From Escherichia coli (GTDB lineage: Bacteria; Pseudomonadota; Gammaproteobacteria; Enterobacterales; Enterobacteriaceae), in NCBI RefSeq assembly GCF_003334335.1, contig NZ_QOWQ01000012.1: a DNA stretch of 64,000 bases; one strand, 5' to 3'. This document shows positions 5,380 to 5,727 of this stretch, one piece after another. Both the position numbers and the translations under genes were made by a program. The notes under the pieces are model-generated. The model did no database searches and was not told the origin of the DNA. It saw nothing but the letters and a program-made list of their open reading frames with translations. The first letter of the stretch is position 1; each line of letters starts with the position of its first letter.

Positions 5380-5727
5380 ATGGCTATCATCCCAAAAAAC
5401 TATGCGCGGTTAGAAAGCGGCTATCGCGAAAAAGCATTAAAAATCTATCCGTGGGTCTGCGGTCGCTGTTCCCGCGAGTTTGTTTATTCCAACCTGCGTG
5501 AACTTACCGTTCACCACATTGATCACGACCATACCAATAACCCGGAAGATGGCAGTAACTGGGAATTGTTGTGTCTCTATTGCCACGATCATGAGCATTC
5601 GAAATATACCGAAGCGGATCAGTATGGTACGACCGTTATCGCAGGGGAAGATGCGCAGAAAGATGTCGGTGAAGCGAAGTACAACCCATTCGCTGACCTG
5701 AAAGCGATGATGAACAAGAAGAAGTGA
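5380..5727 (+). CDS. yajD: small HNH-nuclease-like protein of unknown function
   Basis: 115-aa ORF; cysteine and histidine motif CGRCS...HHIDHDH...CLYCHDHEH consistent with an HNH zinc-finger nuclease fold. Confidence 0.9.
   Translation: MAIIPKNYARLESGYREKALKIYPWVCGRCSREFVYSNLRELTVHHIDHDHTNNPEDGSNWELLCLYCHDHEHSKYTEADQYGTTVIAGEDAQKDVGEAKYNPFADLKAMMNKKK

Follow-up and report, generated by a model that had tools for sequence, protein, structure and literature searches.

YajD of Escherichia coli as a putative zinc-stabilised HNH endonuclease with a conserved C-terminal peptide

We analysed a stretch of 64,000 nucleotides (nt) of Escherichia coli DNA (contig NZ_QOWQ01000012.1 of RefSeq assembly GCF_003334335.1; "the window" below means this whole stretch), with a focus on yajD, a gene at positions 5380–5727 that encodes a protein of 115 amino acids (aa). 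The explanation that we favour, with about even confidence, is that YajD is a catalytically competent, zinc-stabilised endonuclease of the HNH (ββα-metal) type, whose default substrate would be DNA and whose targeting or control would depend on a conserved C-terminal peptide. The gene and its family were already known and catalogued, and a preliminary description of this DNA, made from the letters alone, was correct in its observation of a small stand-alone HNH-motif protein and in its cautious interpretation. Our analysis adds the relocation of yajD between genera, the tail module, and a neighbourhood signal involving ArfB. With these results yajD, a conserved and strongly constrained E. coli gene without an assigned function, becomes easier to test.

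HNH site, predicted fold and C-terminal peptide

The yajD open reading frame (ORF), taken from a program-made ORF list, runs from ATG to stop, and RefSeq names it 'yajD: HNH nuclease YajD'. The motifs reported in the preliminary description, namely CGRC (residues 27–30), HHIDHDH (45–51) and CLYCHDHEH (65–73), are all read in this gene as claimed. The parts of the gene are as follows (coordinates, strand, description).

5380–5727, +, yajD coding sequence, 115 codons plus stop (the RefSeq annotation covers the identical 348 nt)
5401–5445, +, N-terminal helix, residues 8–22, with the YRExALK block (R16 conserved in at least 90% of homologues), from the AlphaFold2 (AF2) model and the homologue alignment
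5458–5604, +, HNH / ββα-metal domain, residues 27–75
5458–5469, +, first CxxC pair (C27, at least 90% conserved, and C30, invariant), part of the predicted structural Cys4 zinc site
5512–5532, +, HHIDHDH, residues 45–51, with H45/H46 at the end of strand β1 (strand 42–46) as predicted metal ligand and general base, from the alignment
5557–5559, +, N60, the Asn of the H-N-H motif, invariant, inside the block D57 G58 (S59) N60 W61 E62
5572–5598, +, CLYCHDHEH, residues 65–73, with the CxxC pair C65/C68 and the predicted metal ligands H69/H73 on helix 66–82, from the alignment and AF2
5605–5673, +, variable low-confidence linker, residues 76–98, without sequence conservation, from AF2 and homologue comparison
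5674–5724, +, conserved C-terminal peptide AKYNPFADLKAMMNKKK, residues 99–115, of the pattern A-T-[HY]-N-P-F-A-[DN]-L-K-x-[ML]-[LM]-K-K, found in 162 of 162 homologues

YajD scores 210.3 bits (cut-off 87) against the NCBIfam model NF008448 'YajD family HNH nuclease' (PRK11295), with residues 2–113 aligned to positions 2–113 of the 113 in the profile; the family name is an annotation and not a tested function. Pfam HNH (PF01844) matches residues 27–75 with an E-value of 1.5e-12 over model positions 1–47 of 47; chance cannot account for scores of this size. In an alignment of 42 diverse homologues, reaching 36% identity, C30, R32, L42, V44, H45, H46, N54, D57, G58, N60, W61, E62, L64, C65, C68, H69 and H73 are invariant, and C27, D48, H51, P55, S59 and E72 are conserved in at least 90% of the sequences. 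No element of an HNH site is missing: β1 ends in the His pair, the hairpin carries the Asn, and the helix carries the H-x3-H. There are also two CxxC pairs that flank the hairpin, and YajD would by its sequence belong to the zinc-ribbon type of HNH proteins. In Gme HNH, the CxxC...CxxC arrangement binds zinc (PMC3765158).

From this pattern we infer a division of labour in which C27, C30, C65 and C68 would hold the structural zinc, H46 would activate water, H45, H69 and H73 (possibly together with D48 and E72) would hold the catalytic divalent metal, and N60 would brace the hairpin. The role of general base is assigned to H46 because residue 49, which aligns with H41, the base of T4 endonuclease VII (Endo VII), is not conserved in the YajD family, being Gly or Asn in some homologues (e.g. 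HHKDGDH). H46, along with H45, H69 and H73, can now be named as the residues to mutate.

Compared with other Enterobacterales, yajD shows nonsynonymous divergence (dN) of 0.04–0.10 with synonymous divergence (dS) saturated, which gives dN/dS below 0.05 and indicates purifying selection. The preliminary description had left the choice between nuclease, nickase and degenerate DNA binder, and had proposed that failure to align the His-Asn-His triad with active HNH nucleases would speak against its reading; the triad does align with the HNH model, and it shows no variation in the family. Given the conservation of the active site and the low dN, a decayed non-catalytic relic or degenerate binder is therefore unlikely.

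Structure prediction, which the preliminary description had suggested as a check, gives a ββα-metal fold. The AF2 model, built from the 42 homologues, has predicted local distance difference test (pLDDT) values of 89–95 for residues 21–70, and its secondary structure (helix 8–22, strands 42–46 and 61–65, helix 66–82) is that of a ββα-metal finger; a Foldseek search agrees, and all close structural relatives of the model are DNA enzymes. The N-terminal helix is longer ('KLDRIVAEARR...') in homologues beyond the close γ-proteobacterial relatives. When YajD itself is searched against PDB sequences, the sole nuclease found is Endo VII (E 0.008). Residues 23–50 (PWVCGRCSREF...LTVHHIDH; 5446–5529) also give weak PDB matches to eukaryotic C2H2 zinc fingers (Miz-1/ZBTB17 and SALL4), a resemblance that is probably due to the common ββα shape and not to homology. 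When the family alignment served as a profile query against PDB sequences, the only matches were C2H2 zinc fingers and a group II intron maturase, which were of no help in mapping the active site.

Neighbouring HNH families were also compared. YajD has no family-level match to Pfam Endonuclease_7 (PF02945; E = 3) and stays far below the NCBIfam cut-offs for HlpB (NF058586; 13.4 bits against 130) and IscB (NF040563; 20.3 bits against 175, over the HNH part only). PADLOC gives a weak match to ZorE that covers only about positions 201–269 of the 282–283 in the profile, and with secF and tsx as neighbours yajD does not qualify as a Zorya member.

The preliminary description had stated that YajD has no partner domain. 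There is indeed no extra Pfam domain, but the flexible linker leads to a C-terminal peptide that is strictly conserved, which qualifies the statement. We surveyed 162 unique YajD-like sequences from genomes and metagenomes, in which the motif proline is found in 95%, the phenylalanine in 99%, the alanine in 98% and the leucine in 100%; the equivalent of H73 lies 20–29 residues from the motif proline, and 8 residues (median) separate the motif leucine from the C-terminus. In the AF2 model, residues 81–100 have pLDDT of 47–52 and a short helix is formed by residues 107–113 (pLDDT about 70). Such an arrangement, in which an invariant terminal peptide comes after a variable tether, usually marks a motif that docks to a conserved partner, or an autoinhibitory tail. 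The tail was also considered as a MinD-like amphipathic membrane helix, and this was rejected, as no 11-residue stretch of YajD reaches the hydrophobic-moment threshold.

On the explanation that we favour, the HNH core would be too small to provide much specificity alone, and targeting or control would most likely come from the NPFADLKxML-KK peptide on its linker of 20–29 residues, which may dock to a conserved cellular partner or fold back on the core; the peptide GEAKYNPFADLKAMMNKKK could be used as bait for such a partner. If YajD acts as all its close structural relatives do, DNA would be the default substrate, with nicking or structure-dependent cutting, and the role may be one of non-essential nucleic-acid maintenance under stress. 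In Salmonella, the ΔyajD mutant behaves as wild type in growth, stress resistance and mouse infection, and the cbpA/yajD and ychN/yajD double mutants are sensitive to H2O2 (PMC3878590).

Two kinds of related proteins were also seen. A sister group (P0217, P0241, P0262, P0245 and P0246) has a YajD-like core (..LTVHHKDGNH.NNP.DGSNWENLC.YCHDDEHSRG.LGDYL) without the linker or the NPFADL tail. The 560-aa protein P0194 has a YajD-like N-terminus, including the tail motif, which continues into about 430 C-terminal residues of uncharacterised type; either a genuine fusion or read-through in the gene call could explain this protein.

Variable chromosomal site and ArfB adjacency

Among 5426 complete E. 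coli genomes, 5425 contain the yajD ORF once, at 94–100% identity, and we therefore regard it as a strict single-copy core gene; its base composition is ordinary. YajD is also widespread in other bacteria, including many γ-proteobacteria. The preliminary description had placed yajD next to the secDF operon and proposed synteny with secDF as a check; secF does adjoin yajD in the window, but the order secF-yajD-tsx is kept in only 5 of 80 loci from different species, all of them from Escherichia, Pseudocitrobacter or Kluyvera. Elsewhere the neighbouring families change by genus (ChiD, SpeD/NemA, ParA-like, CyaB, PhoU), so secDF synteny was rejected and the position beside secDF is uninformative on the function of YajD, which removes a misleading association.

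More specifically, yajD adjoins the chitinase gene chiD in Citrobacter (where another adjoining ORF, without an NCBIfam match, is one that we take to be yeaC), sits between nemA and speD in Pluralibacter, and has a ParA-like gene as neighbour in Serratia, cyaB in Yersinia and phoU upstream in Shewanella. Examples of the relocated gene among these 80 loci (L001–L080) are found in L017 (8001–8345), L009 (8001–8345) and L067 (7944–8303). DNA similarity to E. coli is confined to the yajD ORF and stops at both of its ends; the context is constant within a genus and changes between genera, with yajD as a lone unit. A varied chromosomal site is unusual for a core gene, and the signs of mobility that we checked are absent. 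tRNA genes lie within 8 kb of yajD in only 2 of 60 loci, and 2.9 million viral contigs contain two weak YajD relatives only. No flanking repeats were noticed at the breaks of homology at the ORF ends, terminal repeats and integrases having had no systematic screen, and an integrase-fragment ORF is found upstream at one yajD-like locus. Pseudocitrobacter has an additional ORF of about 466 aa, absent in E. coli, between its secF and yajD genes (L003, about 6560–7960; L005, about 610–2010).

A second set contains 90 loci from metagenomes and metagenome-assembled genomes, more distant than the close γ-proteobacterial relatives and forming 80 groups at 85% YajD identity. When the ORFs (stop-to-stop) around 170 loci were clustered, no broadly conserved operon partner was found, and the families recovered were generic paralogous ones apart from ArfB, which is the top-ranked non-paralogous family in this unbiased clustering. 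Out of six yajD-like loci annotated with Pfam, one has the recurring neighbour ArfB and the other five have no recurring neighbour. Five of the 80 distant groups have a gene for an ArfB-type peptidyl-tRNA hydrolase (RF-1 domain, GGQ) next to the YajD-like gene and on its strand, in both gene orders and with two tight pairs, as listed here (group, position of the ArfB gene relative to the YajD-like gene, spacing).

L081–84, downstream, 4-nt overlap
L138, downstream, 11-nt gap
L111, downstream, about 235 nt
L101/102, upstream, 84 nt
L169, upstream, one gene between

The outer flanks differ in all five groups (PLD/NYN, tag/malic enzyme, rhodanese, thioredoxin and MarR), which occupy about four places in a rough neighbour-joining tree. 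Of 126 assessable sides, 4 have ArfB as the immediate neighbour, against an expectation of 0.03–0.05; after Bonferroni correction, P is about 2e-4 to 6e-4 if the four cases are independent, and only about 0.05 if three are (i.e. if L111 and L081–84 are one lineage). We consider this neighbour signal suggestive, not proven, and the YajD–ArfB gene pair is a proposal of this analysis and not an established system. The adjacency is not found in the window, as E. coli arfB (in yaeQ-arfB-nlpE) is more than 200 kb away from yajD.

ArfB genes are also associated with other nuclease folds. E. coli yaeQ overlaps arfB (L171, 6272–7236), the opposite order arfB-yaeQ is seen in another lineage (L173, 4001–5076), and a GIY-YIG (YhbQ-like)–ArfB fusion protein, P0371, has 14 member sequences. 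YaeQ has a PD-(D/E)XK fold (PMC3424549), and the operon-like link of yaeQ with yaeJ has been noted previously (PMC9252766); the pairings of ArfB with YaeQ and GIY-YIG go unmentioned in a published survey of ArfB neighbourhoods (PMC6514570). YaeQ and GIY-YIG genes were in turn sought near yajD-like genes, with 3 non-adjacent cases, too few to count. Other genes related to RNA or the ribosome that were seen near yajD-like genes include ksgA/rsmA (3 groups), HPF/RaiA-like (2), DEAD-box helicases (3) and miaA (1), at loci L105, L137, L165, L056, L064, L066 and L175; their recurrence is within chance because genomes hold many translation genes.

Competing explanations and known systems

Several points weigh against the HNH endonuclease explanation. 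The yajD papers in the full-text literature searched contain no biochemical characterisation of YajD, nor any enzymatic or structural study of it. Substrate and activity are assigned by analogy, and the partner of the tail remains a postulate. Among the matches to the fold is Legionella DotN, a subunit of the type IV coupling complex in the PDB entries that were matched. DNA-repair genes are not recurrent neighbours in the clustering around yajD-like loci, and the sole specific neighbour signal, that of ArfB, points to translation and not to DNA. This signal is at the centre of one alternative, which we consider rather unlikely, namely that YajD is a translation-linked nuclease that acts at stalled ribosomes, possibly recruited by its tail, and cuts mRNA for rescue by ArfB or tmRNA, making it an analogue of SmrB and a candidate A-site nuclease. 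Besides the repeated adjacency in about four lineages and the other nuclease folds paired with ArfB, it is favoured by the preference of ArfB for ribosomes stalled on truncated mRNA (PMC7427801), by a paper that describes the nuclease responsible for A-site codon cleavage at paused ribosomes as not yet identified (PMC3834316), and by SmrB as a precedent for a small dedicated nuclease acting at stalled ribosomes. On the other hand, ArfB is found near yajD in 0 of 80 γ-proteobacterial loci, and the distance between the two genes in E. coli and the corrected P under the single-lineage assumption count against the pairing as well. At three more loci, which belong to close relatives of the YajD linked to ArfB, the neighbours are miaA, HDOD and GFA instead; no YajD–ArfB fusion was found among the best matches to a concatenated YajD+ArfB query; AF2 modelling of E. 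coli YajD and ArfB as a linked chain (a test of low power) gives a predicted template modelling score of 0.48 with the tail pLDDT essentially unchanged, and does not support a direct complex; the close structural relatives of YajD all cut DNA; and the survey of ArfB neighbourhoods reports a pseudouridine synthase only. Because of these limits on adjacency, model and relatives, we keep the ArfB link as a testable lead and not as the main explanation. Its specific form, in which YajD tethered by the NPFADL tail would cut the mRNA of stalled ribosomes for ArfB/tmRNA and ArfB would work with interchangeable nucleases (YajD, YaeQ, GIY-YIG), seems to us distinctly unlikely. If true, the hypothesis bears on which enzyme cuts the A-site mRNA of paused ribosomes; if it fails, YajD is still a compact natural scaffold for an HNH nickase.

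It is likewise improbable that YajD is a non-catalytic, zinc-finger-like adaptor that binds nucleic acid or protein through its HNH scaffold, as DotN does in the Legionella coupling complex. DotN is among the top structural matches to the model. The resemblance of residues 23–50 to a C2H2 zinc finger and the lack of a phenotype in the single yajD deletion fit such an adaptor, whereas a pure scaffold would not need all the residues expected for HNH catalysis, which are invariant in YajD, including N60 and both helix histidines, and the Cys4 site already explains the structural zinc. A nuclease that is selfish or comes from a defence system (a homing endonuclease that is free-standing, a Zorya-type remnant or a mobile orphan toxin) could account for a gene whose position changes in almost every genus, with DNA homology that ends with the ORF, and for the weak matches to the ZorE HNH domain and to PHROG HNH families. 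We consider it very unlikely, as yajD is a strict single-copy core gene of E. coli under very strong purifying selection, with normal composition and without partner genes; tRNA genes and viral relatives are as rare as given above, and the ZorE match is limited to the HNH part of the profile. The homing endonuclease or mobile HNH candidate in particular was rejected on the single copy in nearly all E. coli genomes, the two weak viral-contig matches and the lack of an extra domain.

For the HNH endonuclease explanation, comparison with known enzymes is informative. Endo VII, the best true-nuclease match in PDB sequences, aligns as NHLDHDH...LLCNLCN..E with HHIDHDH...LLCLYCH..E of YajD. It has 157 aa and is a domain-swapped dimer that resolves junctions; YajD lacks an equivalent of its dimerisation region. 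The pattern of the colicin E7/E9 DNase consists of HH at the end of β1, a hairpin Asn and H-x3-H on the helix, and matches H45 H46, N60 and H69 H73 of YajD. The colicins, toxins that are secreted and come with immunity proteins, lack a Cys4 zinc site, whereas YajD has the Cys4 site and no immunity-like gene adjoins yajD in the window annotation. Geobacter Gme HNH (Gmet_0936; PDB 4h9d) and the HNH endonuclease of phage GVE2 (5h0o) are, like YajD, small and stand-alone, and are zinc-containing HNH nickases, but the identity with YajD is only about 19% and neither has its N-terminal YRExALK helix, its linker or its NPFADL tail.

Many phage and prophage HNH endonuclease genes adjoin terminase genes (PMC3592412), whereas yajD is not beside terminase genes and its family is essentially absent from viral contigs. 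Bacillus subtilis HlpB (YisB), reported to be tied genetically to AddAB (work cited in PMC5714182), resembles YajD as a small conserved chromosomal HNH-like protein without a partner domain, but belongs to a different family by its profile score, and no addAB/recBCD-type neighbour was seen near yajD-like loci. SmrB and the arfB-associated YaeQ may offer a working analogy, as small nuclease-fold proteins associated with ribosome-rescue genes; their folds (Smr and PD-(D/E)XK) are unrelated to the HNH fold of YajD, and YajD is adjacent to ArfB in a minority of lineages.

The yajD locus in the window

The window carries a K-12-type E. coli chromosome, on which the genes are arranged as queA-tgt-yajC-secD-secF-yajD-(tsx)-(yajI)-nrdR-ribD-ribE-nusB-thiL-pgpA, and the 701-nt stretch 5200–5900 shares 100% identity with K-12 MG1655 and further E. 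coli strains. Upstream of yajD lies secF, and downstream of it tsx, in convergent orientation. Within 6.5 kb on either side, the annotation contains no gene for restriction, CRISPR or a toxin, which agrees with the preliminary description. The intergenic features that could act as terminators are as follows (coordinates, strand, description).

5271–5300, +, terminator-like hairpin with T-run 3' of secF, from the terminator scan (inverted repeat I1)
5871–5897, strand not assigned, perfect 11-nt inverted repeat between yajD and tsx, from the terminator scan and the inverted-repeat search

The hairpin between secF and yajD sets yajD apart as a unit of its own, distinct from secDF. The repeat at 5871–5897 scores as a terminator on the − strand (that of tsx), and it is also a candidate for the intrinsic terminator of yajD that has been validated in vitro (PMC12207403). 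A transcription pause suppressed by NusG has been reported inside yajD (PMC10268239).

Two palindromic elements of the repetitive extragenic palindromic (REP) type lie between yajD and tsx, at 5743–5771 and 5810–5841. The 701-nt query that includes these elements has 123,341 matches in the 5,426 E. coli genomes, with a median of 17 per genome. An Rfam scan of 5000–6200 gave no match above threshold and only REP-related matches below it, among which the sub-threshold match to naRNA4 coincides with the second REP element.
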